The notes beneath the pieces were generated by a model. It was not told the DNA's origin and searched no databases. It was given only the letters and a program-made list of their open reading frames with translations. Source: Escherichia coli 042 (lineage in GTDB: Bacteria > Pseudomonadota > Gammaproteobacteria > Enterobacterales > Enterobacteriaceae). From it: a DNA stretch of 64,000 nucleotides. Where the stretch lies: assembly GCF_000027125.1 (NCBI RefSeq), contig NC_017626.1; one strand, written 5' to 3'. The position numbers were made by a program, and so were the translations under genes. Below are positions 7,802-26,731 of this stretch, piece by piece; positions within the stretch are counted from its first letter, which is position 1; each line of letters opens with the position of its first letter.

Positions 7802-7869
7802 AACAATAAATCTCGAAATGGGCAATCGGATTGCATTGTTGCGTACATAACACAAGGGATCAAGTACAG

Positions 7870-8559: not shown

Positions 8560-8597
8560 AAACGGGGAATATAGCCAACTATATCTATAATATTAAA

Positions 8598-8725
8598 AGG
8601 GCCTTACGGCCCTTTCGTTTTCCCTTAAAGGGAACTCTCCCTTGGAGAGAATACATATCCCCACACTTGGGGCAAATCAATCAGCCCATTGGGCTGTACA
8701 CCACTCCCCATACATGGGGCAATCA
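8598..8725. repeat. Array of six consecutive GC-rich mini-hairpins (5-6 bp stems, 3-4 nt loops)
   Basis: GGGCC-TTAC-GGCCC, CCC-TTAAA-GGG, CTCTCC-CTT-GGAGAG, CCCCA-CACT-TGGGG, CAGCCC-ATT-GGGCTG, CCCCA-TACA-TGGGG; two units share the context TGGGGCAA(A)TCA. Confidence 0.6.
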
Positions 8726-9204
8726 GACACTTCCTGAAGTGAATATCCTCAAGGAACCATTATTAAATATAATATTAAATGTAGATTGTCAAATATATTT
8801 GAATATTTATTAAAAATATATTCACAACGACCAATCACAAATAAATTTAATCCCCCATAAATAATTAGAGGATCAAACCAAGTTCCTGATGCCTTATCTC
8901 TTTTATATCTCATGGTATATGTCTGAATGTCAAAACATGGTATATAACAACCAGAGAGCATTTTTATAGGCTGCTATTATCTGACACTCCTTTCCCCGTT
9001 GCTGTTTCCTATAAAAGAGCCAGAGATAGATAATAGCATTTTTATTTCTATCTTATTCACTCTGGATCGCTCGGCTCACAGCTTATTGGGGCGCTCGGAA
9101 CATCAACATAGGATAAAATACCTACCATTTAAATAAATCATAAGATTATACATGTCAAGATAAAGCATGAAATTATATATAGGTTTATCACGGCTATAGA
9201 TACT

Positions 9205-9516
9205 TCACTCCTGCCTCCCAATCATATCCCCAAGAAACCTTTTTCCTCGTAATTTTAATCTTGCTTTATCTTCAATGCTAATATTCGATAATTGTAATAT
9301 CAGTCCTAATATTAACTCCTTATCTACCTCTTCTACTTTACAGCCCATAGCTTTAGCTACCTCAGCACCAAGGATGATCTTCAAGCGTGTCTCTGCGCTC
9401 TTGGATAGAGATTTTTCTTTACTCTTAAGGCGATTCAGACGCATTTGAGCTGATGCTATTTTTTGCTTAATGGTTTTTTCTGATCTCGGCTTTCTACCTT
9501 TATCATCCGTATTCAT
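9205..9516 (-). CDS. mobC: MobC-like mobilisation accessory protein
   Basis: 103 aa basic protein; RL..L....E.R.K.ILGA.VAK pattern resembles RSF1010 MobC; divergent from the relaxase across the oriT-like region. Confidence 0.6.
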   Translation of the reverse strand: MNTDDKGRKPRSEKTIKQKIASAQMRLNRLKSKEKSLSKSAETRLKIILGAEVAKAMGCKVEEVDKELILGLILQLSNISIEDKARLKLRGKRFLGDMIGRQE

Positions 9517-9632
9517 AATTACTTTTCCTTCTAGTTGTCAAAAACATGGAATACAATTAAAAAAGGAAAAGGTCAAACCATAGGCAGAAGGTTGAATACT
9601 TTTTATTCCAGATTAAATAACGCAGCGCGAGA

Positions 9633-9696
9633 TGATTGTTCAAAACAATCACATTGCTGGAACAGGGTTCATCCCTGTTAATGATAGGATTCATCT
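9633..9696. promoter_or_regulatory. Copy A of a roughly 64-bp repeat: palindrome TGATTGTT-CAA-AACAATCA plus hairpin ACAGGG-TTCAT-CCCTGT
   Basis: Near-identical copy at 24961-25023; palindrome alone again at 25101-25121; lies upstream of the mobC-like gene. Confidence 0.55.
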
Positions 9697-10149
9697 CAAA
9701 AAATGATGTTTTGGTTTTAAAAATATGATATTAGTAAGCTCAAAATAAAAACATGCAACACATACGAATGCAGTCACTAACATTAATTACCTGATACTCT
9801 CCGCGTTACTTATTTTATTGAATCAATGAAAACAATTTTACCTCTTGCTTTTTGACTCTGATTTCTGGTCTTAACCTGTGAATTGTGCAACACATAAAAG
9901 TATTTATAATTTTCACTATTTATTTTAAATTCTGCTTTCCCGCCTTACGGCGAGAGACTAATTTAACTACTTTTGCCCTTACGGGCGTTTTCTAAACACC
10001 AGAATCCAATATTATTATCCTACCTCAACCGTTTATCCGATTCCTACCTTTTTAATTTCACAGTCTGTAAAACTAGAGCTATTATTTAACTATAGAAAAA
10101 CATAAAACATTGTCGTTATTTTTAGCTCCTTTAGGAGATATAAAAATAA

Positions 10150-10260
10150 AGCAATGCCCACCTATACACTGCTACGCAGTGTGTGGGGTCTACCGACGGT
10201 TGCCTGCCGCAGGCTAACACCGTTTCCTTCGGAAACAAGGTCAACGTCAACACCAGAGTT
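10150..10260. other. Candidate origin of transfer (oriT), MOBQ/RSF1010-like
   Basis: Between divergent mobC-like and mobA-like genes; inverted repeats ACACTG-CTACG-CAGTGT (10157-10188) and GTTTCC-TTC-GGAAAC (10222-10236), the latter resembling the RSF1010 oriT inverted repeat. Confidence 0.5.
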
Positions 10261-10351
10261 TTTCTTACGAAAAACTAAAACCAGCTGAGTCGTATTGGAG
10301 ATTTATATTTTGGTTTGATATTTAAATTTATTTTGAGGTTGTTTTTATTAT

Positions 10352-11860
10352 ATGGCTATTTTTCATCTGGATTTTAAAATTGTGAAACGTTCTGAAGGCA
10401 GATCTTCCGTTGCGAAAGCTGCCTATCATGCTCGTACACGTATAACAGATGAAAGAACAGGTGATACCTATGATTATAGTCGCCGTACCGATTTATACGG
10501 ACATTTCATATTAGCACCAATTAATGCTCCAGAACATATCGTGAAAGACTCTACAGCATTGTGGAATGAAGTTGAAAGAGTTGAGCGCCAGAGCAATGGT
10601 CAAACATCCCGTTATTTCGATGTTGCCATACCTGCCGAGTTAAACAATGACGACAAGAAAAGACTTGTCCTTGAGTATTGTCAGAAAAATTTCGTTGATA
10701 AAGGCATGATTGCCGATATCGCTTTCCACGATCTTGATAGCGATAATCCTCATGCTCACGTTATGTTGACATTAAAAACCATAGGCCCTGAAGGTTTTGG
10801 TAAAAAAGAAAGAAGCTGGAACGACAGAAAAATGTCTGTTATATGGCGTGAATCATGGGCATCTATGGCTAACAGCTACCTTGCTGCCGCTGGCTCGTCA
10901 GAACGTATTGACCATCGTTCTCTTCAGGCCCAGCATGAAGAGGCATTAGAAAAAGCGGCGGTAGCTTTAGATAATGAAGAAAAAGCGCTATGGCTTGCTA
11001 AAGCCGCTGAAACAAACCGTCCTCCAATGAAGCGTATCCATAGTGCCAAATGGCGTAGTAAAGCAGCACAAGAGCAAAGAGCAGCAGAACAGGCTGTTCG
11101 TGATGCTGCCAAGCAGGAAGCGGTTGAAGTCTACAAGACTTTCAGCGAACTTGATCTTGAAATCGTCGTTGATGTCAGAAGCTTCACCGTGGCTGCTCTT
11201 GCTGAACCAGAAGAGATTGTATTACCAGAAACGCGCTCCGGCTCTTCTTCTCATGAAGCACAAAGTCCTGTATTGGTAGCGCCTATTCCTCATACTCATG
11301 TGCGTGGAGTTAAATCTTACCGCGATAAAGAAAAAGTGAGTAAAGTTGTCATTAATAATATATCAGAACCAAATGTTGCTGATGCTGACATAAACACTCT
11401 TTGGAAAACATCTCCATCTAAAACCAAAAATATGGCATCCAAAAGTACCGCTGAAAGTGTTAAAAGGAAACAGGCTAATCCGCGTCAGGATAATATCTTT
11501 AAACGCTTTACAACGCTTTTGATCGGTTTCTTCAAAGAGAAATTTATATGGGCTAAGAAGAAACCTGATCCTACCGAGATTGAACATGACAGGCATGTAG
11601 CAGAAAATTACGTCTTTGATGAAGTGCTGGGTGTCTATGTATCACGCGCTGACCATGAACAACGAGCCAGATTCAACGGTGATGATAAAGAGTTCTCTGG
11701 TTACAAGCCAACACCTGATGAGATTAAGCGTTTTCCAAGCCGTCTAGCTAATACAGCACAAACTGATAGAGAGCTCGACTACATGCCTTCGCTCGTGGCT
11801 GATAAGAAATCGTTAGCACCTAAATTGAAACCAAATGCTCCCTATAAAAATAGATTATAA
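10352..11860 (+). CDS. mobA: Relaxase, MobA/MobL (MOBQ) family
   Basis: N-terminus MAIFHLDFKIVKRSEGRSSVAKAAYHARTR and NPHAHVMLT (HxH) motif parallel RSF1010 MobA (MAIYHL..., NPHCHLMIS). Confidence 0.85.
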   Translation: MAIFHLDFKIVKRSEGRSSVAKAAYHARTRITDERTGDTYDYSRRTDLYGHFILAPINAPEHIVKDSTALWNEVERVERQSNGQTSRYFDVAIPAELNNDDKKRLVLEYCQKNFVDKGMIADIAFHDLDSDNPHAHVMLTLKTIGPEGFGKKERSWNDRKMSVIWRESWASMANSYLAAAGSSERIDHRSLQAQHEEALEKAAVALDNEEKALWLAKAAETNRPPMKRIHSAKWRSKAAQEQRAAEQAVRDAAKQEAVEVYKTFSELDLEIVVDVRSFTVAALAEPEEIVLPETRSGSSSHEAQSPVLVAPIPHTHVRGVKSYRDKEKVSKVVINNISEPNVADADINTLWKTSPSKTKNMASKSTAESVKRKQANPRQDNIFKRFTTLLIGFFKEKFIWAKKKPDPTEIEHDRHVAENYVFDEVLGVYVSRADHEQRARFNGDDKEFSGYKPTPDEIKRFPSRLANTAQTDRELDYMPSLVADKKSLAPKLKPNAPYKNRL

Positions 11861-12097
11861 ATGATAATATAATTCCCAAAAATATATCTTTCCCCTAAAG
11901 ATTGACCATATCATATACTAAATAACATCATGACTATATTCCTAAGTACTCAAAACCTTGAATTCTATCAACTAAAATGGTATATTATTTTGTTTTTTTG
12001 ATTTTCAATTGCATTGTGATAAGATATTTCATACATTGATTGAGAATATTAAAGAAACGATAATGTATCTTACTTTCATCAATTAGTCGAGGTTATC

Positions 12098-12628
12098 ATG
12101 TCAACTCCTGAGGATGCTTTCAAAAAAAAATTACTAGCTGCTCAACAAGAAAAAGATGAACTTGTTAGGAAAAATCAAATTGATGCAGAGCGTAAAAAAC
12201 AAATCATTGCTGAAAAAATTAGTTTTTATCAAAAACACCAAAATGATTTCATACAACAAGTTATTGAATGGGCCAGTAGTGCAGATTTAAATATCTCATC
12301 ACTTAACATTAGTTATTACGATTATGGTCATTTATTTCAAACAACAGGCATAAGCATTGAATATGATGGTAAAAAAGTTCAGTTTATTCCGCAAGGAGTA
12401 GAACGTGGAACTTTTCTAGGTATCATAAAATTAGATTTTACTAACGCAAATTCATTCATTCAATACTATTTCGGTTTGTCTGCCAATAAAAATGAAGCCG
12501 AACCATATTGGACTTTTGTTCAATATGATACTCAAAACCCTAGTGCTTGGCAGGAAAACTCAAAGCGCATGTCAAAAGAGCTATTCTTTGAAATAATTGA
12601 AAGTATATTACTTCCACCAAAATCATGA
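12098..12628 (+). CDS. Hypothetical protein (176 aa)
   Basis: ORF in AT-rich island DNA; no recognisable motif. Confidence 0.5.
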   Translation: MSTPEDAFKKKLLAAQQEKDELVRKNQIDAERKKQIIAEKISFYQKHQNDFIQQVIEWASSADLNISSLNISYYDYGHLFQTTGISIEYDGKKVQFIPQGVERGTFLGIIKLDFTNANSFIQYYFGLSANKNEAEPYWTFVQYDTQNPSAWQENSKRMSKELFFEIIESILLPPKS

Positions 12629-12947
12629 ATATTGAATATTAGAAAAGCACTCAAGCAGTGCTTTTCTAAATACCATACTCATTTCATTATAAATGAACCT
12701 CGATTTTAATAATTTATACCCTGCCCCCATAATCTTTAATTGCCATATTTATTAATACTGAGATTTAAGCTGTGAGATATATATTTAATATAAAACCACG
12801 ATCGTGTGATAAGACGTTTTCTATATTTACTGGAAATATTAAAATCAAACTCTCCGCTTAAACATAACATTATCATTTATGCCTTGCTATTGGTAAGTAT
12901 TAATTTTTTATCTATACAAGAATCTATTATTCAGATAAAGATTCATC

Positions 12948-13208
12948 TTATTCCGCCCTGTCATAAAAATAAAATGACCAAGCATCACAGAACCATTTAA
13001 TATTTTTATCATCAGATGGATATTCATATCCTTTAAGATTCTCTTTGAGAAAAGATATTTGTGATGGCATCAGCATCCCAACAAGTATCTTTATTAGATC
13101 TTCTGAAGGATATTTATCAAACTCATCTCTGTTAATACCTGTTTTTTCTTCAATGATCACTGAAGCTTTAACTATCTCACATAAAACATCATCTTTTTTA
13201 TTTCTCAT
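12948..13208 (-). CDS. Hypothetical small protein (about 86 aa)
   Basis: ATG at 13208 preceded by AAGGAG Shine-Dalgarno; ORF-track start 13292 less likely. Confidence 0.5.
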   Translation of the reverse strand: MRNKKDDVLCEIVKASVIIEEKTGINRDEFDKYPSEDLIKILVGMLMPSQISFLKENLKGYEYPSDDKNIKWFCDAWSFYFYDRAE

Positions 13209-13379
13209 TATTATCTCCTTTATTGTTTTATATTTAATACCATATAAACAATAAATGTCAAAAATATTTAAAGACAATTTAAGAACAATCAACCCTGAAT
13301 GTATTTGATATGTTGTTCAATACAATAAGCCCTGTATCAAACAGGGCTATATGAATTAAAGGTTACAGATTAAAAAAAC

Positions 13380-14030
13380 TTACCAGCTATCATTATTTCG
13401 CTTTTCAATTGCATCACGATAACGCTGTTGTTCCACAACATCCAGATTTGGATCAAATAACACACTTGATCCTTTCACAGCAATATCGGCATCAATCTCT
13501 GATTGGGGAGCATAGGCCTTATAACCATTAGGCTGTGAAGTGGCTGTGCGGATATATGTCCCATAGTGTTTCCCATTCATAGAACAACCGATGTAAGCCA
13601 ACAGGCAGGCAAACAGGAAAAAGAATGTCCATACTGTATTATAGCCGTTAATCGTATATCCACTTCCATTCACATCTGAAAACACGCCATTAAACCTGAC
13701 CGCATAGACAATCAGGAACGATGAAAGGATAACGGTTCTGCTTTTACCAACAGTTAAATGTTTACGCACAAATTTCACTGTTGGTAGTAGAGTGACCATA
13801 AAAAGAGCGATAGCAACACATACCAGCCATATAGGAAACAGTCCATATTTTTGTGTAATGTTCTGCGATACCGTCACCAAGGACAGCACCAAGAAGGCGT
13901 TGAGCAGAAAAAGTCTGACCGCCATCCATACCTTCACGTTCTTTTGCGTCTTACGGAGAAACAGCATCGGAGTCAGTGATGGTATGTTCATCAGCAGACC
14001 GATGATAAGCACCCAATAGATAGAGTTCAT
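13380..14030 (-). CDS. Polytopic inner-membrane protein (216 aa), unknown function
   Basis: Several hydrophobic helices; last gene of a three-gene minus-strand operon. Confidence 0.6.
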   Translation of the reverse strand: MNSIYWVLIIGLLMNIPSLTPMLFLRKTQKNVKVWMAVRLFLLNAFLVLSLVTVSQNITQKYGLFPIWLVCVAIALFMVTLLPTVKFVRKHLTVGKSRTVILSSFLIVYAVRFNGVFSDVNGSGYTINGYNTVWTFFFLFACLLAYIGCSMNGKHYGTYIRTATSQPNGYKAYAPQSEIDADIAVKGSSVLFDPNLDVVEQQRYRDAIEKRNNDSW

Positions 14031-14046
14031 AGCGTTCTTCCTGTAA

Positions 14047-14601
14047 TTACCGGGCTTGCCAACCGTTATTGATTTTCACCAGAACAATTTTGGCTTCTTC
14101 TGGTTCAGACATCCCTTTCACGCCAGAGAAGGCATTTTTATCAACCCAGCCCGGCACGCCATCCAGTTTCCACGTATAGGTCACTTGCGTCATTTTAACG
14201 CCATTACCCTCACTCGGTTCAGTCCAGCTTTTAACCTCAGCTACGGCACGGTGACCAACACAGGCACCATCTTTACGATCCCAAAACTCAACCTCTTGGC
14301 CTTTGTCTGTTACTTCCAGAACATCTACGCTGCTAAAGCCGTTAGGTTGCTGCGAAACATCAAGCAGTCCCTGATTAGCCAGACCTTTCAAGATTTCATC
14401 ACTGGCACTGTATCCAGCAGAACGATAGCCATGGTTGACCTTAACCGGAAAACCTTTATTGAACGTAAAGTCATTGTCCTGAAGGGAGTAGCAGACCTTA
14501 GATTTTGATATATGCTCGTTTATCGCTTTCTCAAAGTCGCCTTTTTCACCGCAGCCTGATAACAACACGGCAAGTCCTGCAATGACTAAAAATTTACTCA
14601 T
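14047..14601 (-). CDS. Lipoprotein (184 aa), unknown function
   Basis: Signal peptide with lipobox LLSGC (MSKFLVIAGLAVLLSGC). Confidence 0.65.
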   Translation of the reverse strand: MSKFLVIAGLAVLLSGCGEKGDFEKAINEHISKSKVCYSLQDNDFTFNKGFPVKVNHGYRSAGYSASDEILKGLANQGLLDVSQQPNGFSSVDVLEVTDKGQEVEFWDRKDGACVGHRAVAEVKSWTEPSEGNGVKMTQVTYTWKLDGVPGWVDKNAFSGVKGMSEPEEAKIVLVKINNGWQAR

Positions 14602-14615
14602 GGTTCTTATTCCTT

Positions 14616-15194
14616 TTAATGATTGATAGTGCCGTTTCTCAGAACAACCAGACGAACTGGCATATCGGCATTGTTTACTGTGGCGAAGCCACGAACTTCG
14701 AAGTTGTTGACTGTTCCAGTGACACTGACTTTCTGGCCTTTCTTGTAAGTAAGAACCGCATCATCAATACCAGAGTAGTAATCCAGCCAGACCATCCCGC
14801 CGCAGTAGCTTGTATCGGCTGTTTTAAAGAGCAGATAATAATTAGGGGCTGATTTGGGCATTCCCGTCATCATATCGCTGGCACTTCTGCCCTTCGTAAC
14901 CTCAAGAACAGTGGCATTGGTGATAGCGATCCTTTTGCCAGTCCATTTTTTTTCTGCTGCCATCGCATTTTCTTCATAGTCTTTGCAGACAGCACCAAGG
15001 CCAGTAATGGACGTCGCTGGACCACTATCCTGACCGGAAGCTGAAACCCGCAGCGCTTTATCAACGGTGCTGTTCAATGATGCCAGTGAAGAGTTAATTG
15101 CCCCATTAACGCTATTCACGCCTTCGTTGAGTTGCTGGCAGCCAGAAAGAAACACCAGAGAGATCGCCAGTGGTAAGAAGTTATGTCCTTTCAT
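14616..15194 (-). CDS. Lipoprotein (192 aa), unknown function
   Basis: Signal peptide with lipobox FLSGC (MKGHNFLPLAISLVFLSGC); first gene of the operon. Confidence 0.65.
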   Translation of the reverse strand: MKGHNFLPLAISLVFLSGCQQLNEGVNSVNGAINSSLASLNSTVDKALRVSASGQDSGPATSITGLGAVCKDYEENAMAAEKKWTGKRIAITNATVLEVTKGRSASDMMTGMPKSAPNYYLLFKTADTSYCGGMVWLDYYSGIDDAVLTYKKGQKVSVTGTVNNFEVRGFATVNNADMPVRLVVLRNGTINH

Positions 15195-15317
15195 TTATTC
15201 CTCAAGGATTTAGTCAGATTCGTATACCCCAATCCCGGCGCACTGACCTATAGATCAGGAGTTATCGTCTAATCAATTGATAGAATTGAATTATTTTTAG
15301 TGTTCGTCACATCGTTT

Positions 15318-15460
15318 AAATCGATCGATATAAAACAAATGATAGACTCAGGCTATCATAGATAATATATCGATCGATAATATCAATTAAAAAACCGATC
15401 GATAAATCACTTTCAATCGTTAATGCCTATCAATATAAATTTATCGATCGATTTTACAGA
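15318..15460. promoter_or_regulatory. Four copies of the palindrome (A)TCGATCGAT(A), each with a Dam GATC site, in the divergent promoter region
   Basis: Copies near 15321, 15370, 15396 and 15444 with spacings about 49/26/48 bp; additional inverted repeat GATAG-N7-CTATC at 15341-15359. Confidence 0.6.
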
Positions 15461-15529
15461 TCATTTTGCTTGAGTATGTTGGCACTGGCGGCTATGCTGG
15501 GCTGAGATAAAGCAGTAAAACAGAGAGGG

Positions 15530-15985
15530 ATGAGCATGGAAAACAACAACGAGCGAAGCTCTATGGAAATCTTCGAAAAAGATCAAAAAATCGCTTTTGT
15601 TGACTCGTTCAGCGATGCTGCTTTGTCTTACGAATACGAACAGGCGGGCTTCACCATTAATTTAATGCAACGCTCGGTTCTTCTCTTTAACCATAATATA
15701 AAGAAAAACGTAACTGCCAAGCAGTTGCGTAAAAATAATATAAAGAATAACGTAATGTCTTCGACATTGCGTAAAAATATGAACAGCACATTTATATATT
15801 CATATAACAACATCAGGGAAATCAACTACTCGCTGCCTGATTGCAGATCCGATGATGCCGAGAACTGTATTATGATTGATGATGTATTAAATCCAGTCTG
15901 GACGTTCAGGGTTCCATCTCACGCACATTATATTTGCGAGCAATGGGTGGAAGTATTTAATAACCATATTTTCTTTGACCCATAA
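15530..15985 (+). CDS. Hypothetical protein (151 aa)
   Basis: ORF downstream of the GATC-palindrome region; low GC. Confidence 0.5.
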   Translation: MSMENNNERSSMEIFEKDQKIAFVDSFSDAALSYEYEQAGFTINLMQRSVLLFNHNIKKNVTAKQLRKNNIKNNVMSSTLRKNMNSTFIYSYNNIREINYSLPDCRSDDAENCIMIDDVLNPVWTFRVPSHAHYICEQWVEVFNNHIFFDP

Positions 15986-16110
15986 ACAAAGTATTAAGCA
16001 AAAGGAAAATAAATATCTGACTAATGATATTAATTAATAGAATTATTTGCTTTTTAGCAAATTAATGTTTAATTATATACACATAGAATAATTGATATCG
16101 AGGTATATTT

Positions 16111-16581
16111 ATGTCTGGGAAAAATCCTTTTTGGAATTATGATTATAATGCGGCGCAACGTAATAGAGAAATTGTAGACTCTTACCAACAGGCAAATGAG
16201 GCAAGGCTGGATTCTCAACAGGCGCAGTTTGAAGCGTCTATGGCTAATGACAGGGTTAGCAGAATACAGATGCAGTTGAATAACACAATCAATAGCCATA
16301 AGAAGGTTGTGGCTGATTATGAGCAACGTCTTGAAGAATATAAACAAAATTTCTTTCGTGTAGCTTTACATAAAAACATTCTCTTCAGAACGGTTCGCAG
16401 ACTTCAGGAGGAATGGCCGGATAAAAATGAATTCATCCTTGATGAAATGCAAAGACAAAGAATTTTGTGTAATCAGCAGGACTATAGAGAAAGATGGTGG
16501 AATGCCATAAAAGATAATAATCTTGCTGACGATTATCTTGAGTTTCCATTTCCTAATAGAGAGATAAAAAACAAACCATAA
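16111..16581 (+). CDS. Hypothetical protein (156 aa), charged and Gln/Glu-rich
   Basis: ORF with ATG start; no recognisable catalytic motif. Confidence 0.5.
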   Translation: MSGKNPFWNYDYNAAQRNREIVDSYQQANEARLDSQQAQFEASMANDRVSRIQMQLNNTINSHKKVVADYEQRLEEYKQNFFRVALHKNILFRTVRRLQEEWPDKNEFILDEMQRQRILCNQQDYRERWWNAIKDNNLADDYLEFPFPNREIKNKP

Positions 16582-16695
16582 TAAGTAATTAACTATTCGT
16601 TCATAACATTATATTTATTTTAATAAGACACTAACCTGCTGTGTCTCCTAAAAACACGCCTATACATCAACCATCCATTTTATGGAATACTCATC

Positions 16696-16974
16696 ATGAC
16701 AACTACTTTGCATCCAAATTACGTTGTTGTATCAAAGCTAATATCTAAGTTTGACATTACACATGATAGTAGAGATGAGAATATTAATATCTTGATTTCT
16801 GTCATTTATGACTTGGATAACGGCAATACAATCGAATACTACATTAATAATCAGGAAGAGGCCGAGAAAAAATGCATTGAGAAAAACAGATTTTCAAGGA
16901 AATTTAAAAACCGCATTGATAATATATCACCTGAAGAAATCCGCTCGGCTAAAGATAATCACAAACCCAAATAA
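16696..16974 (+). CDS. Hypothetical small protein (92 aa)
   Basis: ORF co-oriented with neighbours. Confidence 0.45.
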   Translation: MTTTLHPNYVVVSKLISKFDITHDSRDENINILISVIYDLDNGNTIEYYINNQEEAEKKCIEKNRFSRKFKNRIDNISPEEIRSAKDNHKPK

Positions 16975-17097
16975 TAAATTTGAACTCAGGATGGAACTAA
17001 TGTCTATACCGTATAATGTATTGATTTTGTGCACAGGAACGATTAAAACTATGATGTTATTGCTTGTATTCTTTACCACAAACATTAGGGAAATCGC

Positions 17098-17505
17098 ATG
17101 TCTGATGCTTTAAAGATCATCAACAATATTCGTACTCTCCGTGCTCAGGCTCGTGAACTGACACTCGAAACCTTGGAAGAGATGTTAGAAAAACTCACTA
17201 TCGTTGTAGAAGAACGTCGTGAAGAAGAGGCCTCATTTCTAAAACAGCAGGAAGAGAAACAGGCCAAGCTGGAAGCATTCCGTCAGAAGTTGTTGGAAGA
17301 TGGCATAGACCCGGCAGAGTTGCTTTCAACTGTTAGCCCATCTTCTTCCAAGACAGGAGCGAAACGCGCCCCACGTCCAGCTAAGTATAAATATGTTGAT
17401 ACCGATGGTTCGGAAAAGACGTGGACAGGTCAGGGCCGAACTCCTCGTGCTATCGCTGCTGCGCTCGAAGCCGGTAAGACACTGGAAGATTTCGAGATCA
17501 AGTAA
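17098..17505 (+). CDS. H-NS family nucleoid-associated protein, island-encoded paralogue
   Basis: 135 aa; ...[23 protein letters not shown]...[25 protein letters not shown] parallels the StpA encoded at 50350-50754 in this window. Confidence 0.85.
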
Positions 17506-17517
17506 TCTTCATACCAT

Positions 17518-18066
17518 ATGTCTACCAAATCCGCTCATTTTTCTTGGGCGGGTTTGTTGAACCAACCTACAGGGATTAACATGCCAATAAAAGAGTTCTT
17601 AATTATGAAATCAAAAGCCTTTATTAACTTCATGCGCACTGAACTAAAAAACACATTTACAACTTCTCCTTGCGAAAATAAATTAAGAAAGGCTATTTTT
17701 ATTTTTTCTTTATTAAATGCCTTAAATATCATAGGTTATTACATCCTCACATATAGTATGCAAATCCTGTTCCTGTTGCCTATTATTTGGGGAGGGTTAT
17801 TAGCACACGGGACTTACAAACGCTATGGAGATTTGCTTAGATCTGGTTCTGATTGTGCTCTTTTTCTGGTGGCTACTATTACATCAGCATATCTCGTCAT
17901 TAACACAGCAAGTGATGATGTCGATTTTTTTGAAAAGCATATGATAAATGGATTAGGTTTTTTGATTACATATGTTTTTGCTGTAGCTGCATCCGTTCGT
18001 TTTTATATCAGTGCAATAGATTTATATAATAGCTTTATTTCTTTTAAAAAATCAAAAGAAAAATGA
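17518..18066 (+). CDS. Membrane protein (182 aa), unknown function
   Basis: Hydrophobic helices; immediately downstream of the H-NS paralogue. Confidence 0.5.
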   Translation: MSTKSAHFSWAGLLNQPTGINMPIKEFLIMKSKAFINFMRTELKNTFTTSPCENKLRKAIFIFSLLNALNIIGYYILTYSMQILFLLPIIWGGLLAHGTYKRYGDLLRSGSDCALFLVATITSAYLVINTASDDVDFFEKHMINGLGFLITYVFAVAASVRFYISAIDLYNSFISFKKSKEK

Positions 18067-18324
18067 AATCACTCATCCTTAGAGTCCATATCTGCCCTGA
18101 GGATGATATACCAAAATACATGTATAAAGATAAACAATAAATTAAATGCATAAACCTTTTGATTCATTGCTATTAAGTTCACAAAAACACTCACAATAAG
18201 AAATAAATAGTTCTTTTTTCTATGTTCTTTTAGATACCTGATGAATAACATAATAACCTCCATATTGAAAATATGGAAATTATTTAACATCTATCATTAA
18301 TAAGTCAAGGCAGTCTACAGGAAT

Positions 18325-19578
18325 TTATTCACTTGCCTGAGTCGCTCTTGTCGCATTTGTTTTTAAATTATTCAGCATTTGCTTATCAACCGGTTGCAGT
18401 TGTTGTCCTAACAGAGCCGCAAGCAAAATATTTGTGTCTTCTGTTCTTTCGATTTGAAGCATTTGTAATCTTAAATCAAGTGCCTGCATTCTTGCCTGCT
18501 CATGCGCAGTTTCTTTTTCATCAGCACTACTGATTTTTACCTGCCAAGCGTCAGCACCTGTTGTATCTGCATAGCGTGAATAGATCTCATATCTTAACAT
18601 TTCCCACTCTGAAGGATTATCCGGGAATGTTGTGCCGGGAAATAAGGTCGCATACTTGTTTTTTACGGAAGCATCTGACCAAGCAAGGTTTGCTCCCTGC
18701 GTAGAGCCCAATGTGGATCCTATTTTGGCCCCTCTGGAGTTCACTGATATATTACTTGCTTTTTTCATTGCCAGTACGGAATCAATGGCGTTTGTTCCAG
18801 CAGTGCTTCTGGAGACAAAGCTCGAAAAGGCCGATAAATATTCTCGACCTTCATTTGTGTCTTCTAATCCTTTGTTCTTCAATGGTTCAACGGGCAAGTT
18901 CCCTATAAGATTTCTTTTTGCCGCTTCAGCAACCTCAATCTGCTCAACAGAATAGGACTGATTCGAAACCTTATTAGACAATGCATCGGATTTAGATAAT
19001 GGTGGTGTAATCAGGCTTGATGCCGACTTATCTTTATCAGGATACTGACCTATAGTATTACACCCACCTCTGTTATATTTCACATCATCTTCGGAGCAAA
19101 CATTTATTGATACTCTGCCCATGATGTTTTTCTTGGCCTCATTTATTCTGGTATTTGCTTGTGTAAACATCTTAACGCTGTTTTCAGATAAAGCCTCTTT
19201 AGCTGAGCTTGTATTCGATCCTGCTGCACCACGACCACCTGCGCTCGTGACTTCTTCACAGGCGTTGGCATCAGGTATTCTGTTTAAGATATTTTTCATG
19301 CGCTGTTCTTGGATTGCCTGACTGGCATTACTGACAACCGCATTCTTCTGATTCTCACTGGCTGTTATGGTTGCTTGTGCCAGCTTGTCGTTCATTGAGA
19401 CTAATGTTTCAATTATTCCATTGCCCATAGATTGGGGTGAAGCCCCCATAAGATACGGTGTCAAAACCTCTTCTGTGACGGGCCAGACAGCGAAAGCTGT
19501 ATTTGTATATAATACAGAAAAACACAAAGCTGAAACCACTGTTATTCTCTTTACTTTAAATTTATTATTACTCATCAC
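18325..19578 (-). CDS. Secreted/periplasmic protein (417 aa), unknown function
   Basis: N-terminal signal peptide (…LYTNTAFAVWP); third gene of a three-gene minus-strand cluster. Confidence 0.6.
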   Translation of the reverse strand: MMSNNKFKVKRITVVSALCFSVLYTNTAFAVWPVTEEVLTPYLMGASPQSMGNGIIETLVSMNDKLAQATITASENQKNAVVSNASQAIQEQRMKNILNRIPDANACEEVTSAGGRGAAGSNTSSAKEALSENSVKMFTQANTRINEAKKNIMGRVSINVCSEDDVKYNRGGCNTIGQYPDKDKSASSLITPPLSKSDALSNKVSNQSYSVEQIEVAEAAKRNLIGNLPVEPLKNKGLEDTNEGREYLSAFSSFVSRSTAGTNAIDSVLAMKKASNISVNSRGAKIGSTLGSTQGANLAWSDASVKNKYATLFPGTTFPDNPSEWEMLRYEIYSRYADTTGADAWQVKISSADEKETAHEQARMQALDLRLQMLQIERTEDTNILLAALLGQQLQPVDKQMLNNLKTNATRATQASE

Positions 19579-19948
19579 AACACTCCTGTTAACTTATTAC
19601 CTTCTTTATTATTTAACCAATTAAATATGAACTGTCAATTTTAACAAAAATATTCATCTGGCATCCAACTTTAAAATTATTATAAAAGAAGCGTATAAAT
19701 CCAACGAAGTAGATTCCATGAACTAGCGTGGTGCTTTTATAGCTTTATCGATGAAGATAGATAGCATGAAATAACTTTACTTTTACGGGAGCATAAAACT
19801 TTATAAAAGTAATGTTTCCATTCAAAAAAGCCGTAGCAATATTTTATTTTAGATGCAGCCATTTCAACTTTGTTTATAAGAAAAAATATAAAGTGAGTTT
19901 CATTGCAGATAATAATCAGTTAGAAAGAGGACCGAAGCCCTCTTAATA

Positions 19949-22609
19949 TCACATTCCATCATTACCTTCTTTTGATGATGAACTACCACCGGAAGATCCA
20001 CTACCGCTCCCTTTCTCTGGAGCCTTAAAGCTTTCAATTGGTGAAGCTTGGGCCTGTAAACTTACAGGCAGCAACGGTCTGTTATGTTCACCAAACGATA
20101 CCGCTCTGTTAGCAGCCTTTTGAGCTACATTCATATAACCTGCTGCGCCTGCTGTATCACCAATAGCATCTGCTGCCTCAGCTGCATGGTAAGCCGAGTT
20201 AGCACTTTCAAGAGACTGATATTCATCCTGCTGATCAAGTGGGCCAGCATTACTCATATGAGTTCTGAATGCAGATCCCGTATCATTGGCTTTATTAGCC
20301 GCCAGTGCTTTCCCCTGTTGAGCCTGTTGCTGTTGTTGAAGCTCACGTTGCTGTTCACGGTCTTTGTTAATTTGCGCATTCCTGATCTGATTACCCATCG
20401 CATTTGAGGTATGGGAAACCTGATCCAACACGGTTTTGGTAAACATAGCACCTTCAACACCTTTTGATGCCGACTGTGCGTAACCCGACATGCTCTGACC
20501 ACCATGAACACCAAGCCACTTCATAATTTCATCAGGGATGATGTGAATCAGTGAAAGTGATTTCTTCACTACCGTGAACATCATTGCAATATAAACAGCA
20601 ATGAGAGCCAGTGACTCGATGATACCTATCCCGGCATTGGCTGACATCATGCCAAAAGCGCCGGAGAATGTTTCGTTGACGATCCCACCAAGGATAGGGA
20701 GCATCGTATAGGCTGCTATTAATCCTGTTATCATTAGCGCTGGTCGCATGGTTAACGATAAAACCAGACCATAACCAGCGCCACCACGACCCACTACGCC
20801 ATCACCATCTGGATGTAAATGTGTTATTACCCATAATGGTGCTGCGACCATTGCTTCAAGGCACAGGATCATCCAGCCTACGCAAACACCAAACCACATG
20901 ACGTAAGGCAGCATAGGAATGACGACGGCTAAAGTATCGCCAGCTATCCATAAAGGGATAACCAGTGGCATAACAATCCCCATAGCGCCAAATGCACCCG
21001 ATACCCAGCTTGCAGTCGCTGATGTCCATGCGCCAAGACCTGCCCCAACAACAGCAGAACTCCCTAATAACGTCCAGCCAGCGGCACTGATCGTATCCCC
21101 AAGCCCTTTAACAGCTAATAACGGGTTTATTGCCTGTAAATTGGCAGCGGTTGTGTCCGTCGAGAACGAGACGATTTTCCCTTGTTTTCTTCCATTGATA
21201 ACGCTGGAACTGAGAAAACCCGCCATTGCACCAGAAATGCTCTTATTGGCTTCACTTTGAAGAGAAGAAACTATTTTTCCAGCATCATCTGTTTTAGGGC
21301 CTACACCACTTTTACCACTGGTATTGGCTTCCGTTCGGTTTTGCGCATCAATACCATTCGCATATCTTGAAGCTGTCGTTGATTTCGCCATATCTTGAGC
21401 CACTTTTGCCATAATCGCGTTCAGGCTGTTATCGAATATATCTCCGTATTCCATTGTCGCTTGCCCGGCTACAGGAAGATTATGAGCTGCTCCATTAATC
21501 GCATCCTGCACACGGATCAGTTTCATACTCCATGCGCCAGCCATAAACCATCCGTCTTTCTGGACATTCTCTTTGAAATCATCCCACTGGTCGCCAGTGG
21601 AGAAAACTGTTCGTACTGCAGTATCAATAATGGATACATATGAGGCCGTTGCGCTGTTTATTCCGGTCTGAATATCAATATTATTATCGGCCACATACTG
21701 TTCAGCCAGCGTTTTCATACTATTATCAAGGCCGATAAATGCGGCATTGTGTGCCTCAATAACATCTGAAATATTCGTCTTTATATCCTGTGGCATATAA
21801 GCCATATACATGCCGCCAGCAGCAATGGTAGCCTGAGCTTTAGCCTGTTCGTCATAAGAAGCTTTGGCCTTCGGGTCTGTAAGCGTGATGCTTCCACATG
21901 CAGCCTTGGATACCAGTAAATTTTTATTCATATCATTACCGGCATTGCTGGCTCCATAACTGTATGTGTATAAATAGGCACCTTTCTCCGGTGTCATTTC
22001 AAACGCAGGCGTGACGTGCGGGAAGGGATCGGCTGCTGCTGATTTCTTCCATAATTCTCCCGCCTTTAACATACAGACGTTATTGATAAAGGCGGTTTTC
22101 GCTATGCGATCAAGCTCCTGATAAGATGCAGATGTGGTAATAACAGCCCCATCTGAGGGGTTGGATGCATAGGTATTCCAGACGGTATCTGCCAGACCGA
22201 CTCCCTGATTAATCATCCACAGCACCATAACCTGAGCGGCACAGAAACCACCTGCTGCCGGGAGTATCATTGCCGTGCCTAATGCAGTTCTTACGGGCAA
22301 CCACATGGAAGACCATTTCTTACCCAGCATTTCTCCGTCATGTGCCGTTGACATGGTTCCGGCAATCAGTGTGTAGGCAGCTAAAATGCCACCAACCAGT
22401 AAAACAGCGCTGTTAAGGATTGTCATTGTGCTGGCTAAGGGACTTTCCGCTAAATTGTCCGGGAATAAGATATCCAGAAACCACAGCTTTGATTTGTCTG
22501 TCTCCGGGACGGTAAATAAATCTGCGGCATAAGCTGACTGAGTTAATAACAGGCAAGCTAATATTACTAATAATATCGATACTTCTTTTTTCTTTATATT
22601 TATCATCAT
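19949..22609 (-). CDS. Large polytopic membrane protein (886 aa) with signal peptide and Gln-rich / Gly-Ser-rich C-terminus; possibly mating-pore related
   Basis: Signal peptide ...LLTQSAYAADL; many hydrophobic segments; C-terminal ELQQQQQAQQ and GSGSGSSGGSSSS low-complexity runs. Confidence 0.6.
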   Translation of the reverse strand: MMINIKKKEVSILLVILACLLLTQSAYAADLFTVPETDKSKLWFLDILFPDNLAESPLASTMTILNSAVLLVGGILAAYTLIAGTMSTAHDGEMLGKKWSSMWLPVRTALGTAMILPAAGGFCAAQVMVLWMINQGVGLADTVWNTYASNPSDGAVITTSASYQELDRIAKTAFINNVCMLKAGELWKKSAAADPFPHVTPAFEMTPEKGAYLYTYSYGASNAGNDMNKNLLVSKAACGSITLTDPKAKASYDEQAKAQATIAAGGMYMAYMPQDIKTNISDVIEAHNAAFIGLDNSMKTLAEQYVADNNIDIQTGINSATASYVSIIDTAVRTVFSTGDQWDDFKENVQKDGWFMAGAWSMKLIRVQDAINGAAHNLPVAGQATMEYGDIFDNSLNAIMAKVAQDMAKSTTASRYANGIDAQNRTEANTSGKSGVGPKTDDAGKIVSSLQSEANKSISGAMAGFLSSSVINGRKQGKIVSFSTDTTAANLQAINPLLAVKGLGDTISAAGWTLLGSSAVVGAGLGAWTSATASWVSGAFGAMGIVMPLVIPLWIAGDTLAVVIPMLPYVMWFGVCVGWMILCLEAMVAAPLWVITHLHPDGDGVVGRGGAGYGLVLSLTMRPALMITGLIAAYTMLPILGGIVNETFSGAFGMMSANAGIGIIESLALIAVYIAMMFTVVKKSLSLIHIIPDEIMKWLGVHGGQSMSGYAQSASKGVEGAMFTKTVLDQVSHTSNAMGNQIRNAQINKDREQQRELQQQQQAQQGKALAANKANDTGSAFRTHMSNAGPLDQQDEYQSLESANSAYHAAEAADAIGDTAGAAGYMNVAQKAANRAVSFGEHNRPLLPVSLQAQASPIESFKAPEKGSGSGSSGGSSSSKEGNDGM

Positions 22610-22625
22610 TACATTCCTTTGCCTC

Positions 22626-23150
22626 TTACTTCATTGAATTACTGATGCTGCTCCAGACATCGTTTCCGTTGACTGTTGCTCCCGATCCTGATGAAGAGCC
22701 AGTTCCTGTAGAAACACTTCCATTTGCGATATTCCCAATCACGGGCATATCAATAGAAATGCTTTCGGATATACTTCCGGTCAGTTGACTTACTTTTTCC
22801 CTCGCAATCGAACAGGCTTTACTTATTGCTGCTTCCTTCGTTTTTTTAATTATTGAATCCACAGATGGCAGGCTGATGCCGAGGTTACCCACAGGCCAAG
22901 CGTCCGTACAACCAATCGTCTCAAGTGACTGATTGATGTTATCCATGAAATTCTTCGCTACCGGCTCTAACTGAGCCGCATCCTGCTTCATTGCGTTATA
23001 TTGCGCTTGTTTTAATGATGAGCTGACATCCGGGCTACAGACTGCTGCATTAGCTGTGGTTGCTGAAATTAATATTGTTGCGGGAAGGATTATTTTGAAA
23101 ATGCGGACACAGACATTTGTTCGCCATTTATTTTTATTAAGTTTATTCAT
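22626..23150 (-). CDS. Secreted protein (174 aa), Ser/Gly-rich C-terminus
   Basis: Signal peptide ...ISATTANAAVCSP; 16 nt upstream of the 886-aa gene. Confidence 0.55.
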   Translation of the reverse strand: MNKLNKNKWRTNVCVRIFKIILPATILISATTANAAVCSPDVSSSLKQAQYNAMKQDAAQLEPVAKNFMDNINQSLETIGCTDAWPVGNLGISLPSVDSIIKKTKEAAISKACSIAREKVSQLTGSISESISIDMPVIGNIANGSVSTGTGSSSGSGATVNGNDVWSSISNSMK

Positions 23151-23470
23151 TTGATACTCCTTTAATTTATTACATTTTATTCACCATATTTTCTTCTTGT
23201 GATTAAATAAAAATACAATGCCTTATTAATATATATTAAATAAAATAGAATTAATCAAGAGAACGATCATTTAATTTGACAATGACTTTATTTTTGATTA
23301 CTGTTTAAAAGTAAATAAATGATTACTCCAAAAAATTTATTACAATACTCTGAAGAGGCCAGTTTATCTGGCTTCTTTTAATTTAATAAGGATTTCACCT
23401 TCCACATTCCAACGTTTAAAATATGAATATATGTGTATAAAAAGTTCAGAGAAGTCGCGTTAATGGATCA

Positions 23471-24235
23471 CTAAATATTATCCCAATCTAACGGTTCTTC
23501 TGGTGGCACAAGACTTGTGTTCTCTACAGAAGGGATTTCATTTATACTTTCACTCTTCACTAACCCTTGAGACTTTTTAGCCTGCAATCTTGCGATTAAC
23601 AAATCTATCTCATCTTGGTTATTAACTTCTTGTATAACTGCTTCAATTGACCTGTTTTTATCTTTAAGTATGCTATTGCCACCGCCATTGACGACTATGC
23701 TTTCGGGTTGTTCTTCCATTGCTTCTTTCTTTTTTATAATCTCTGATACAAAGCGAGCACGATCACCATTGAAGACAATAGCAGGGTTTATGAAATACCA
23801 GTTTTTCTCATTGGTTTTAGCAATAATACGTTTTTCGATGAGTTCTTTGATACCTCTGTAAAAGATAGATTCAGACAAAACAAAGTGATCTATCTTTTCC
23901 GCAAGAGACATTGCCTTTTTACAGCTCAGGTAGAAATGATCTTTGCCTATCGCATCCTGATATATTCGTAAAAATATGAAAAACACTTTGTATGCTGTTT
24001 TCGTGAGATCAAAATATGCTTTTATCTGAGAGGTATAGAGTTTAATGAACTCTTCTTTATCGACCTCTTGTGTATGCACGATATTGGCGAAGTAGCTTTT
24101 ACCTGTATCTTTCTTTTCGATAAGTTCTGTGCCTCTTGAAACGGTCAGATTTTTCTTTCGTGTTTCAATCTTTAGCTCTGTCTCAAAGCAAAAAGGATTT
24201 AACCCTAAATCTAAGTCAACGTCTATTTCATTCAT
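23471..24235 (-). CDS. Winged-helix DNA-binding protein, candidate replication initiator or regulator (254 aa)
   Basis: Central ...SIFYRGIKELIEKRIIAKT...YFINPAIVFNGDR block is winged-helix-like; paralogous layout to the 25693 gene; iteron-like array 170-250 bp upstream. Confidence 0.5.
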   Translation of the reverse strand: MNEIDVDLDLGLNPFCFETELKIETRKKNLTVSRGTELIEKKDTGKSYFANIVHTQEVDKEEFIKLYTSQIKAYFDLTKTAYKVFFIFLRIYQDAIGKDHFYLSCKKAMSLAEKIDHFVLSESIFYRGIKELIEKRIIAKTNEKNWYFINPAIVFNGDRARFVSEIIKKKEAMEEQPESIVVNGGGNSILKDKNRSIEAVIQEVNNQDEIDLLIARLQAKKSQGLVKSESINEIPSVENTSLVPPEEPLDWDNI

Positions 24236-24401
24236 TTCATTATTACCTCTTGTTGTTTTATTTATAATAAATTAAATACCATGCACAAAAAAGATATCAA
24301 GTTTTTTGCATATTTTTTTGCGAAAATATTTTCAAAATCGCAACTATTCCAGTGACGATACTTTAAAGCACTGTCGTTTTTAAGCTAAAAATGACATAGA
24401 A

Positions 24402-24484
24402 ACTGACTGCAAAGTCAGGAAAGCTCACCGTGCAGTCAGGAATACTGACTATAGAGTCAGGAACACTGACTGTACGGTCAGTCG
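24402..24484. repeat. Iteron-like array: 3-4 tandem units of ACTGACT-N4/5-AGTCAGGAA at about 21-22 bp periodicity
   Basis: AGTCAGGAA at 24412, 24434 and 24455; ACTGACT at 24402, 24444 and 24465; each unit is an inverted repeat. Confidence 0.65.
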
Positions 24485-24960
24485 TATATTTTCGTTCTAA
24501 GCCTTATGCCGTAAGGGCTACAGGCCGGTTTTTTCTTAATTTAATTTTGCAAGAAGTAAGAGATAATACTTAATAGGATTAAAAGAAACCGGGCGATTTT
24601 TATAATCGCCATACAGGGTTTCAATATTTTAAATGATTAGTTTTTTTGAGTGCAATATTTATTTTTATTGCGAAGCATTTCTTTCTATTTCACTAACATC
24701 TTTTTTTTGAAAATCACCACCATCTATGAGCTGAAGCTCATGTGCTGACGCACGGCTACGCCCTAACTCTGAAATATGTATTTTTATCTTGATGAGGTGT
24801 CTTATTAATATTGATAGTAAAAAGAGGAAAGATCTTTTCCAGATCATTTCATCATAAAAAACAAAATTGATCCTATGTTTGAACATAGCATTACCGCAAT
24901 AACATATAGCATTTTCCCTTAAACGAATAGGAAAATTATATTTTCAGTAGCAGCACTTAG

Positions 24961-25121
24961 TGATTGTTCAAGACAATCACATTGCTGGAACAGGGTTCAT
25001 CCCTGTCAATGATGGATTTATCCATAAAGAATTGCGGCGATAGCCGCTATGAAATAAAGGAGAAACAATTTCATCTGTACTCATATATAAGCAGTGCTAA
25101 GTGATTGTTTAAAACAATCAC
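24961..25121. promoter_or_regulatory. Copy B of the 64-bp repeat (24961-25023) plus a third copy of the palindrome GTGATTGTTTAAAACAATCAC (25101-25121)
   Basis: Copy B is about 90 percent identical to copy A at 9633-9696, including hairpin ACAGGGTTCATCCCTGT. Confidence 0.55.
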
Positions 25122-25389
25122 TTCGCTGTAATAACATTATAGTAAAAATAAAATAGGTAGCACAAGGTGCCATTTTCATAAGGCACAAATGAGTTTCATA
25201 GCAAAACGTTTCTGGATAGATCAATTAAGAAATATTTCAATACAATTCATCCTTCATTGCTGAAAACCTCCAACGCCATTCATAAAACAGCAGGTGCCAT
25301 TCAACAGGCACACATTCCCTTTTACTATATTAAACTTATTACTATATTACAGCTGTTATTTCTCATATAAAACAACATATTACAGAAAA

Positions 25390-25480
25390 AAGGTTATAGG
25401 TTCCTATAACTATGGTTATCGATATCTATAACTCGGATTATAGTTTACTATAACCATAATTAGCAAAAACTATAACTATA
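25390..25480. repeat. Cluster of about six CTATAAC / GTTATAG motifs in direct and inverted orientation
   Basis: aggttataggttcctataactatggttatcgatatctataactcggattatagtttactataaccataattagcaaaaactataactatagtt; about 200-300 bp upstream of the 25693 gene. Confidence 0.55.
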
Positions 25481-25692
25481 GTTCCGCACTGAAACTAATC
25501 TTTAAAACTGGCGAGCATTCCACTCTCAATAAACTTATTCCAGTCACGAATCAATAACGGCTTCAATTTATCCTGTTCTGTGGATGGTTTTCCACTATAT
25601 TAAAACTTTTTCCACTTATTTTTGACTTTGTTATTGACCATAGTGTTTAATCTGTTATGTATTAATAAAAACAATAACAAAAGGAAAATACA

Positions 25693-26391
25693 ATGACACA
25701 AATAGATTTTCAATCTCTTAGCAGTTTATCCCCCTTTCAGCTAACACAGTATATTGATGATCATCTTTTCACTAATGAACAGAAAGTGCAGATATTCGAA
25801 CATTATCACAGCACACATAAAGACACTACCAATATCTATTCGAGAAAAGAAAACATTAAATCTATTAAAAAAGATGTTGATTATGTCCATATGTTCACAA
25901 AAAACTTCCAGCAACTCGCAGAACTTGATATTTCCAAGAATGAGTTGAAGGTTATCGCAAGGATTTTAAACATCATGGAGTTTGGAAACTGCTTTCATAT
26001 ATCGCAAGCAAAGCTATGCCGCGACTTAGATATTAAAAAATCAAATATGTCTCTTGTCTTTAAAAAGCTCAAAAAGAAAGGGATCATTATTGATAAAGAT
26101 GGAGATCTCTTTATGAACTCCAACATATTTCTTAAGGGACAAGCGCATTCTATCAATGCCAAACAACGCCCTAATGTTAAAAAGGCACAGGGATTTAACG
26201 CTAATAATGAACCAGTATTTGATAATGTTTATACATTTAATCAAACAAATGATTCTGACAATCAACCTACAGAAGGAATGACTACATCTGAGCCACCAAA
26301 AACATCTGATAGCTGTTCTAACAAAGAAACAGATCCAGCACTGACGCTGCAGTATCCTAAAACAGAAGAGCCAGCTTATGATGATGTTTAA
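25693..26391 (+). CDS. Winged-helix DNA-binding protein, candidate Rep-like or regulator (232 aa)
   Basis: ...ISQAKLCRDLDIKKSNMSLVFKKLKKKGIIIDKDGDLFMNSNIFLKG winged-helix-like block; repeat array upstream. Confidence 0.5.
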   Translation: MTQIDFQSLSSLSPFQLTQYIDDHLFTNEQKVQIFEHYHSTHKDTTNIYSRKENIKSIKKDVDYVHMFTKNFQQLAELDISKNELKVIARILNIMEFGNCFHISQAKLCRDLDIKKSNMSLVFKKLKKKGIIIDKDGDLFMNSNIFLKGQAHSINAKQRPNVKKAQGFNANNEPVFDNVYTFNQTNDSDNQPTEGMTTSEPPKTSDSCSNKETDPALTLQYPKTEEPAYDDV

Positions 26392-26422
26392 TATATAAGC
26401 GAAGAAGCAACATAGTGACTGG

Positions 26423-26719
26423 CTACTGCCAGTCAATGAGATCCTCTGGTGATATCCTATCCTTCTCCATCAATTTGAGGATCTTTTTCATTTTTAACTT
26501 ACGTGCCTTTTTCTCACCAATCTCCTGATAGTATTCTTCCCGCCGTTCCGCTACTACCTTGCGGAACTTCTTCAAGAGTTTGTTCAATGTCTTTATATCA
26601 GTGGTAGCCGCTTCAGCTTGGATTTTTCTATACATATACATAACGTGGAATTCATCAATCATATTAAACCTCTTAGTTTTATCATTCATGTGATTTCCCT
26701 CTTTCGAGGGAATACTCAT
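26423..26719 (-). CDS. Hypothetical small protein (98 aa)
   Basis: Last gene in a co-oriented run of small genes. Confidence 0.45.
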   Translation of the reverse strand: MSIPSKEGNHMNDKTKRFNMIDEFHVMYMYRKIQAEAATTDIKTLNKLLKKFRKVVAERREEYYQEIGEKKARKLKMKKILKLMEKDRISPEDLIDWQ

Positions 26720-26731
26720 TACATCTAAATA

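Follow-up and report, generated by a model that had tools for sequence, protein, structure and literature searches.

The H-NS paralogue gene hns2 of enteroaggregative Escherichia coli 042 and its genomic island setting at ssrA

The open reading frame at positions 17098..17505 is almost certainly hns2, the third H-NS-family gene of enteroaggregative E. coli (EAEC) 042, whose product serves as a weakly expressed auxiliary or backup silencer in H-NS/Hha complexes. We use "window" for the whole stretch of 64,000 nucleotides that was analysed. The gene is not new: it has been named and experimentally characterised in two papers (Prieto et al. 2018, PMC5861252; Prieto et al. 2020, PMC7582179), and the primers, accession, length of 135 aa, sequence identities and promoter described there all agree with the window. 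What is added here is the setting of the gene on a mobilisable, ROD21-like island at ssrA, in the company of an H-NST-type homologue. Neither H-NS2 paper treats the island context or the co-resident truncated homologue, and the words "island", "H-NST" and "truncated" are absent from both. The initial annotation had singled out an island-encoded H-NS paralogue alongside chromosomal stpA, and that observation is confirmed and far beyond chance.

Identification of the gene rests on an intact reading frame that begins with ATG and has its stop codon within the coordinates, and on its agreement with published reagents and accessions.

17098..17505 (+): hns2 coding sequence (H-NS2, EC042_2834, WP_001278198.1), 135 aa; identified by the open reading frame, both Pfam H-NS domains, primers and accession

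All ten hns2-specific oligonucleotides listed in Table S4 of Prieto et al. 2018 (PMC5861252) match the window exactly, between 16821 and 17822, and bracket the reading frame. The deletion-arm primers map to 17062-17103 and 17500-17541, those for cloning span the frame from its ATG (17098) to its stop codon (17505), and the check primers flank it at 16821 and 17822; the matches include stretches of 36-42 nt over both ends of the reading frame. The same paper gives WP_001278198.1 and CBG35667 as the accessions of H-NS2 and describes it as a third H-NS paralogue encoded by EC042_2834 in EAEC 042. Strains 4/1-1 and AHB1 have a 100%-identical gene, which RefSeq likewise annotates with WP_001278198.1. 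In our alignments the window protein is 64.4% identical to K-12 H-NS and 53.0% identical to StpA, reproducing the published values of 64.4% and 52.99% (PMC5861252). Primers, protein accessions and gene order point to strain 042, or to one indistinguishable from it at this locus. The truncated homologue described below matches CBG35676.1 exactly, an accession nine numbers past CBG35667, and a reading frame 13 genes upstream of hns2 has a weak match to a Pfam family named after EC042_2821. The closest complete genomes are 99.8-99.9% identical across the hns2 island.

The protein has the two-domain architecture of H-NS and StpA. Residues 1-77 match Histone_HNS_N (Pfam PF22470; E = 4.4e-25, 87.8 bits against a cut-off of 24.5) and residues 96-134 match the Histone_HNS C-terminal DNA-binding domain (PF00816; E = 2e-16), both well over the gathering scores. 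The closest solved structure for the N-terminus is the oligomerisation domain of H-NS, residues 1-83 (3nr7, E = 1e-25), and for the C-terminus the matches are 2lrx and 2l93, structures of the C-terminal domains of StpA and H-NS. The alignment further shows that the H-NS dimerisation residues R12, R15, L26, L30 and L33 are kept and that the sequence TWTGQGRTP, with the QGR minor-groove DNA-binding motif, occupies residues 108-116; these elements too are shared with H-NS and StpA. H-NS2 departs from H-NS at C21, which is replaced by leucine, and within the second oligomerisation site, for example at Y61F and M64K.

The initial annotation had likened the protein to StpA, whose chromosomal gene it correctly located in the same window.

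50350..50754 (-): chromosomal stpA, the core paralogue, 134 aa; open reading frame with both H-NS Pfam domains

We assign this gene to stpA because its product scores 281.5 bits against the NCBIfam StpA equivalog model, for which the cut-off is 202. The likeness is genuine in that both proteins carry both domains and align end to end without gaps (53% identity, E = 2e-45); it is incomplete in that H-NS2 is nearer to H-NS and nearer still to Hfp. H-NS2 scores 168.5 bits against the StpA equivalog (NF007656; cut-off 202) and 180.9 bits against the H-NS equivalog (NF008193; cut-off 211), and thus falls below both cut-offs. The alignment with H-NS, StpA, Hfp and a plasmid homologue that had been suggested at the outset, extended to two further island homologues, gave the following identities to H-NS2.

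Hfp (536, serU island): 76.1%
serU-island homologue (strain PAR): 74.6%
homologue on the cadC-adjacent island: 73.1%
H-NS (K-12): 64.4%
IncH-type plasmid homologue: 63.4%
StpA: 53.0%

A neighbour-joining tree of eight sequences, built without bootstrap, places H-NS2 as sister to the Hfp group and apart from the H-NS, StpA and plasmid branches. Fitzgerald et al. 2020 equate hns2 with hfp, as the same gene under another name. The identity of 76.1% is well short of the >90% that they used to collect Hfp, and because of this gap H-NS2 is, as judged from its sequence, a distinct sub-lineage beside Hfp. Hfp (also H-NSB), encoded on the serU island of the uropathogenic strains 536 and CFT073, is nonetheless the closest characterised relative. 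Like H-NS2 it is encoded on an island, is under repression by H-NS, interacts with H-NS and serves as a backup silencer, and the two islands share a backbone of TraD, MobQ, DotA/TraY, H-NST, AlpA and DUF6387 genes. They differ in a sequence divergence of 24%, in the integration site (serU versus ssrA) and in the integrase, that of the serU locus compared being only 31% identical. The temperature bias is also opposite, Hfp acting mainly at 25 °C and H-NS2 mainly at 37 °C, as reported. Sfh, or H-NS(R27), of the IncHI plasmids is likewise a full-length H-NS homologue on AT-rich mobile DNA, but it is only 63% identical and falls on a separate branch; it is plasmid-borne and abundant, whereas H-NS2 is chromosomal, island-borne and scarce.

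We also considered membership of the HlpC clade of Fitzgerald et al., whose host range is similar and whose sequences vary little. This placement was rejected because HlpC diverges at position 33, where H-NS2 keeps L33, and because hns2 was itself equated with hfp.

The expression signals of hns2 agree with the published promoter. 5' RACE (PMC7582179) identified a G as the transcription start; it follows the -10 box by 7 nt and precedes the ATG by about 41 nt. From that description the elements could be located in the window as follows.

17021-17026 (+): -35 box of hns2, TTGATT, placed from the description in PMC7582179
17027-17043 (+): promoter spacer, 17 bp
17044-17049 (+): -10 box, TAAAAC, placed from the description in PMC7582179
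17056 (+): transcription start G, placed from the description in PMC7582179
17087-17091 (+): AGGGA, a putative Shine-Dalgarno-like site 6 nt before the ATG, read from the sequence

In hns mutants a C>T change arises at the -10 box's final base (PMC7582179); the window carries the wild-type base, C17049, and the same weak -10 box is found in the three other ssrA-island copies examined. A consensus promoter scan did not report this promoter because it demands T at position 6 of the -10 box and the real box is TAAAAC. The scan for terminator-like sites found none 3' of hns2. Twelve nt past the hns2 stop codon begins a reading frame of 182 codons (17518..18066) that has hydrophobic stretches and no Pfam match and is present in only 6 of the 77 hns2-carrying genomes. 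In the other 71, homology ends at about 17535, some 30 nt beyond the stop codon, and hns2 therefore lies at a junction between backbone and cargo.

The expression of hns2, its repression by H-NS, the interaction of its product with H-NS, Hha and Lon, its regulon subset and its capacity to compensate for H-NS are matters of published experiment. The mRNA of hns2 is >80-fold below that of hns (PMC5861252), and H-NS2 is more abundant at 37 °C, in minimal medium or DMEM, during stationary phase and when hns is mutated (Prieto et al. 2018, PMC5861252). H-NS represses hns2 (Prieto et al.). In pull-downs H-NS2 co-purifies with H-NS, Lon and Hha (PMC5861252), which bears out the interaction with H-NS that the initial annotation had put forward for checking. 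A subset of H-NS/Hha-silenced, probably horizontally acquired genes is derepressed in an hns2 mutant at 37 °C and not at 25 °C (Prieto et al.); the gene is thus expressed, and its deletion has an effect on H-NS-repressed and mostly horizontally acquired genes, two points on which the initial annotation had made its case depend. A strain lacking only hns2 grows almost normally at 37 °C, the growth of an hns mutant becomes poorer when hns2 is removed as well, and cloned hns2 rescues growth of an MG1655 hns mutant (Prieto et al. 2018), so that H-NS can be replaced by H-NS2 for growth. An up-mutation in the -10 box yields more H-NS2 and compensates for the loss of hns, and an excess of H-NS2 can be deleterious (Prieto et al. 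2020, PMC7582179). On account of these mutant, pull-down and compensation phenotypes we regard H-NS2 as taking part in H-NS/Hha nucleoprotein complexes as an auxiliary or backup silencer.

The mechanics of the individual domains we infer from the sequence. The N-terminal coiled-coil would allow mixed oligomers with resident H-NS and contact with the Hha co-repressor, and the C-terminal domain would bind AT-rich DNA in the minor groove. The gene has a weak sigma-70 promoter, its -10 box TAAAAC being without the consensus final T, and under repression by H-NS the protein makes up a minor fraction of the wild-type H-NS pool. Its level is higher at 37 °C, in minimal medium, during stationary phase and on loss of H-NS. 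At 37 °C it helps to silence a subset of the H-NS/Hha-repressed genes, mostly horizontally acquired; with H-NS absent it stands in as a backup, and the single C>T change in the -10 box lifts its level enough to restore growth. From its present location, hns2 probably arrived on the mobilisable ROD21-like island at ssrA. Accessory H-NS paralogues of this kind bear on how mobile AT-rich DNA joins the host silencing network and on how EAEC 042 copes when a global regulator is lost. For hns2 that significance has already been established experimentally, and the value remaining to be added is modest.

The label "island-encoded" given to hns2 in the initial annotation is correct, because an AT-rich block starts right after ssrA with an integrase gene. 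GC content falls to about 30-40% from roughly 5 to 41 kb of the window; it is 37.7% across 3747..29900 as against 51.6% in the core flank (41000..64000), in accord with the earlier description of the island as strongly AT-rich. The low-GC block begins directly 3' of ssrA (3384..3746).

3384..3746 (+): ssrA (tmRNA), the integration site; ARAGORN
3747..30271: ssrA-adjacent genomic island, ~26.5 kb, 37.7% GC; delimited by composition, the annotation of relatives and backbone identities, right end approximate
3871..5142 (+): island tyrosine integrase; Pfam Arm-DNA-bind_3, Phage_int_M and Phage_integrase, RefSeq start ~3913
9205..11860: mobilisation module, consisting of the TraD homologue and the relaxase
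9205..9516 (-): TraD homologue; annotation of relatives, 77% identity to the cadC-adjacent island protein
10352..11860 (+): MobQ/MobA-MobL relaxase; Pfam MobA_MobL (E = 1.7e-56), 77% identity to the cadC-adjacent island protein
28281..28514 (-): AlpA-family helix-turn-helix protein, candidate excisionase (recombination directionality factor, RDF); Pfam Phage_AlpA (E = 9.5e-18), role taken from the EARL description
28655..29521 (-): DUF6387 gene, 867 bp, beside the candidate excisionase; Pfam DUF6387 (E = 1.1e-47), comparable with the ~843-bp RDF companion of ROD21-like islands

Other island genes encode an SEN1982-family lipoprotein and TraW-like and DotA/TraY-like proteins. The backbone proteins TraD, MobQ, TraW-like and DotA/TraY are 77-85% identical to their counterparts on the serU and cadC-adjacent islands. 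In contrast, the integrase is only 31-33% identical to those at the serU-adjacent and cadC-adjacent loci compared, and AlpA and DUF6387 are 36-47% identical to those of the same islands. Because of this difference between backbone and integration genes, the hns2 island has a ROD21/serU-type backbone with a different integration module.

Several features match the EARL (ROD21-like) islands described by Pina-Iturbe et al. 2018. The GC content of 37.7% lies within the EARL range of 35.7-39.2%, the hns2 island has a P4-type integrase, an AlpA-like RDF with a gene of ~850 bp, and TraD with a MobA/MobL relaxase, and it carries the pair of a full-length H-NS homologue (hns2, +) and a truncated homologue (-). 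EARL elements are integrated at an Asn-tRNA gene, however, whereas the hns2 island is at ssrA and has a divergent integrase, so that the integration module that defines EARL differs here. The serU island has been described as ROD21-related with a different integrase, and the hns2 island parallels it.

No repeat of the ssrA 3' end that could serve as attR was found by a direct-repeat search with 12-nt seeds, and a search of the whole window with the 25-nt pattern of the ssrA 3' end (3722..3746), allowing three mismatches or fewer, returned only ssrA itself. The right end was hence set at ~30271, where homology to other ssrA islands ceases, and is approximate. The right attachment site of this copy may have been lost, leaving the island immobile.

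Between its conserved blocks the island has a variable slot (5164..7882) that here holds genes for a DUF3644 protein with an EC042_2821-like nuclease domain and for a DNA methyltransferase. The cargo between the conserved blocks of related ssrA islands includes an ABC-three-component system, ApeA, a reverse transcriptase/TIR system and GmrSD.

The gene of most interest to specialists is the H-NST-type partner of hns2 in the same island. Absent from the initial annotation, it was found by tblastn with residues 12-76 of StpA.

26423..26662 (-): truncated H-NS-like gene (H-NST type), 79 aa; tblastn and Pfam, exact match to CBG35676.1

Residues 1-76 of the product match Histone_HNS_N (E = 1.5e-17) and the C-terminal domain is absent. 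It shares 79% identity with the protein that occupies the H-NST position on the serU island of uropathogenic strain 536, and 81% identity was obtained with the serU and cadC-adjacent island counterparts. A16 and L30 are conserved, and positions 60 and 63 are K, not R. Relatives of the gene occur in 557 of the 5426 complete E. coli genomes. A literature search for EC042_2843, the locus tag that we deduce for this gene from its accession offset to hns2, returned no mention of it. By its sequence the product fits the H-NST type known from the serU and IE3 islands (~80 aa, N-terminal domain only) and is the better candidate for an H-NS antagonist. We suggest, very tentatively, that hns2 and this gene could form an island-borne silencer/anti-silencer pair whose ratio sets the active share of the host H-NS pool. 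If so, the hns2 phenotypes of strain 042 (temperature switch, subset regulon, toxicity on over-expression) would depend in part on the truncated partner, and the pair would travel on an ssrA-targeting variant of the ROD21-like backbone that swaps anti-phage cargo between strains. The truncated homologue could accordingly confound or explain some of the phenotypes ascribed to hns2.

Three other roles for H-NS2 can be weighed against that of an auxiliary or backup silencer. By analogy with Sfh on pSf-R27, for which such a function was demonstrated, H-NS2 might supply extra silencer so that an incoming 26-kb AT-rich island spares the host from titration of H-NS and the fitness cost that follows. 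The difference in GC content between island and core (37.7% versus 51.6%) speaks for such a role. ROD21-like islands are very AT-rich as a group and often carry H-NS homologues, for which this role has been proposed in reviews, and hns2 belongs to an island backbone that is conserved in several genera. Yet an mRNA >80-fold under that of hns would add little silencer capacity in the wild type, and growth at 37 °C is hardly affected by deletion of hns2. The published lists of top H-NS2 targets, moreover, contain no genes of the hns2 island and no locus numbers near stpA (EC042_RS15335). We consider this role unlikely, though it is the strongest of the three.

A less probable proposal, to which we give little credence, is that H-NS2 and the H-NST-like protein chiefly control the excision, replication or transfer of their own island, chromosome-wide effects being secondary. 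Full-length and short H-NS homologues in opposite orientation occur together in many ROD21-like islands, as they do here, the expression of ROD21 island genes, including that of the H-NS homologue, has been linked to excision, and hns2 has its place at the margin of the conserved backbone. Against this, locus numbers near the island are missing from the published lists of top targets, and with no attR found this copy may have lost the ability to excise.

That H-NS2 instead forms defective hetero-oligomers with H-NS and so derepresses island or virulence genes is very improbable and largely refuted by the published mutant phenotypes: although H-NS2 binds H-NS, differs from it at positions in the second oligomerisation site (for example Y61F and M64K) and has truncated relatives (H-NST) that are proven antagonists, its targets go up and not down when hns2 is deleted, cloned hns2 restores growth of the MG1655 hns mutant and over-expression makes up for the loss of hns, a complete DNA-binding domain is kept, and the 79-aa gene at 26423..26662 fits the antagonist role better. 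The initial proposal that an acquired paralogue can modulate or counter host silencing consequently stands in its first half, the published data showing reinforcement and backup, and is contradicted in its second.

As an auxiliary silencer H-NS2 is confined to a minority of strains. Of 5426 complete E. coli genomes, 77 were found by megablast to carry the hns2 locus, in each case on the chromosome, and the copies are annotated as "H-NS family histone-like protein". Unlike the core genes hns and stpA, hns2 is thus accessory, as well as being far more weakly transcribed than hns. About 770 further genomes carry a paralogue that is ~70% identical at the DNA level, in some cases on plasmids. The exact H-NS2 protein is found on at least 1000 contigs, and its 90% cluster includes Klebsiella, Salmonella, Citrobacter, Enterobacter, Cronobacter and Raoultella. 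The sequence of hns2 has been stated to be identical in all carrying strains (PMC5861252); among the complete E. coli genomes its alleles span 90-100% nucleotide identity, with 11 at 99% or above, 52 at 95-99% and 14 at 90-95%. The H-NS2 of strain SaT040 (20001..20408 of its locus) is 97% identical in protein sequence to the window copy.

Two further observations concern the structure of the region. An 83-nt direct repeat occurs at 9622..9704 and 24950..25032, the copies being 81% identical, 15.3 kb apart and on either side of hns2. It contains two short hairpins, TGATTGT..ACAATCA and ACAGGG..CCCTGT, and the copy at 9622..9704 lies between traD and mobQ, the expected place of an oriT. The repeat may be a duplicated oriT-like site. 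Beyond the island, the segment 30272..41000 holds ypjA and a tRNA gene and is missing in the other hns2-island strains examined, in which the island abuts glaH directly.

30281..34984 (-): ypjA
37995..38070 (-): tRNA Met(CAT) according to ARAGORN; presumably ileY, going by the K-12 map, with an anticodon that reads CAT before modification
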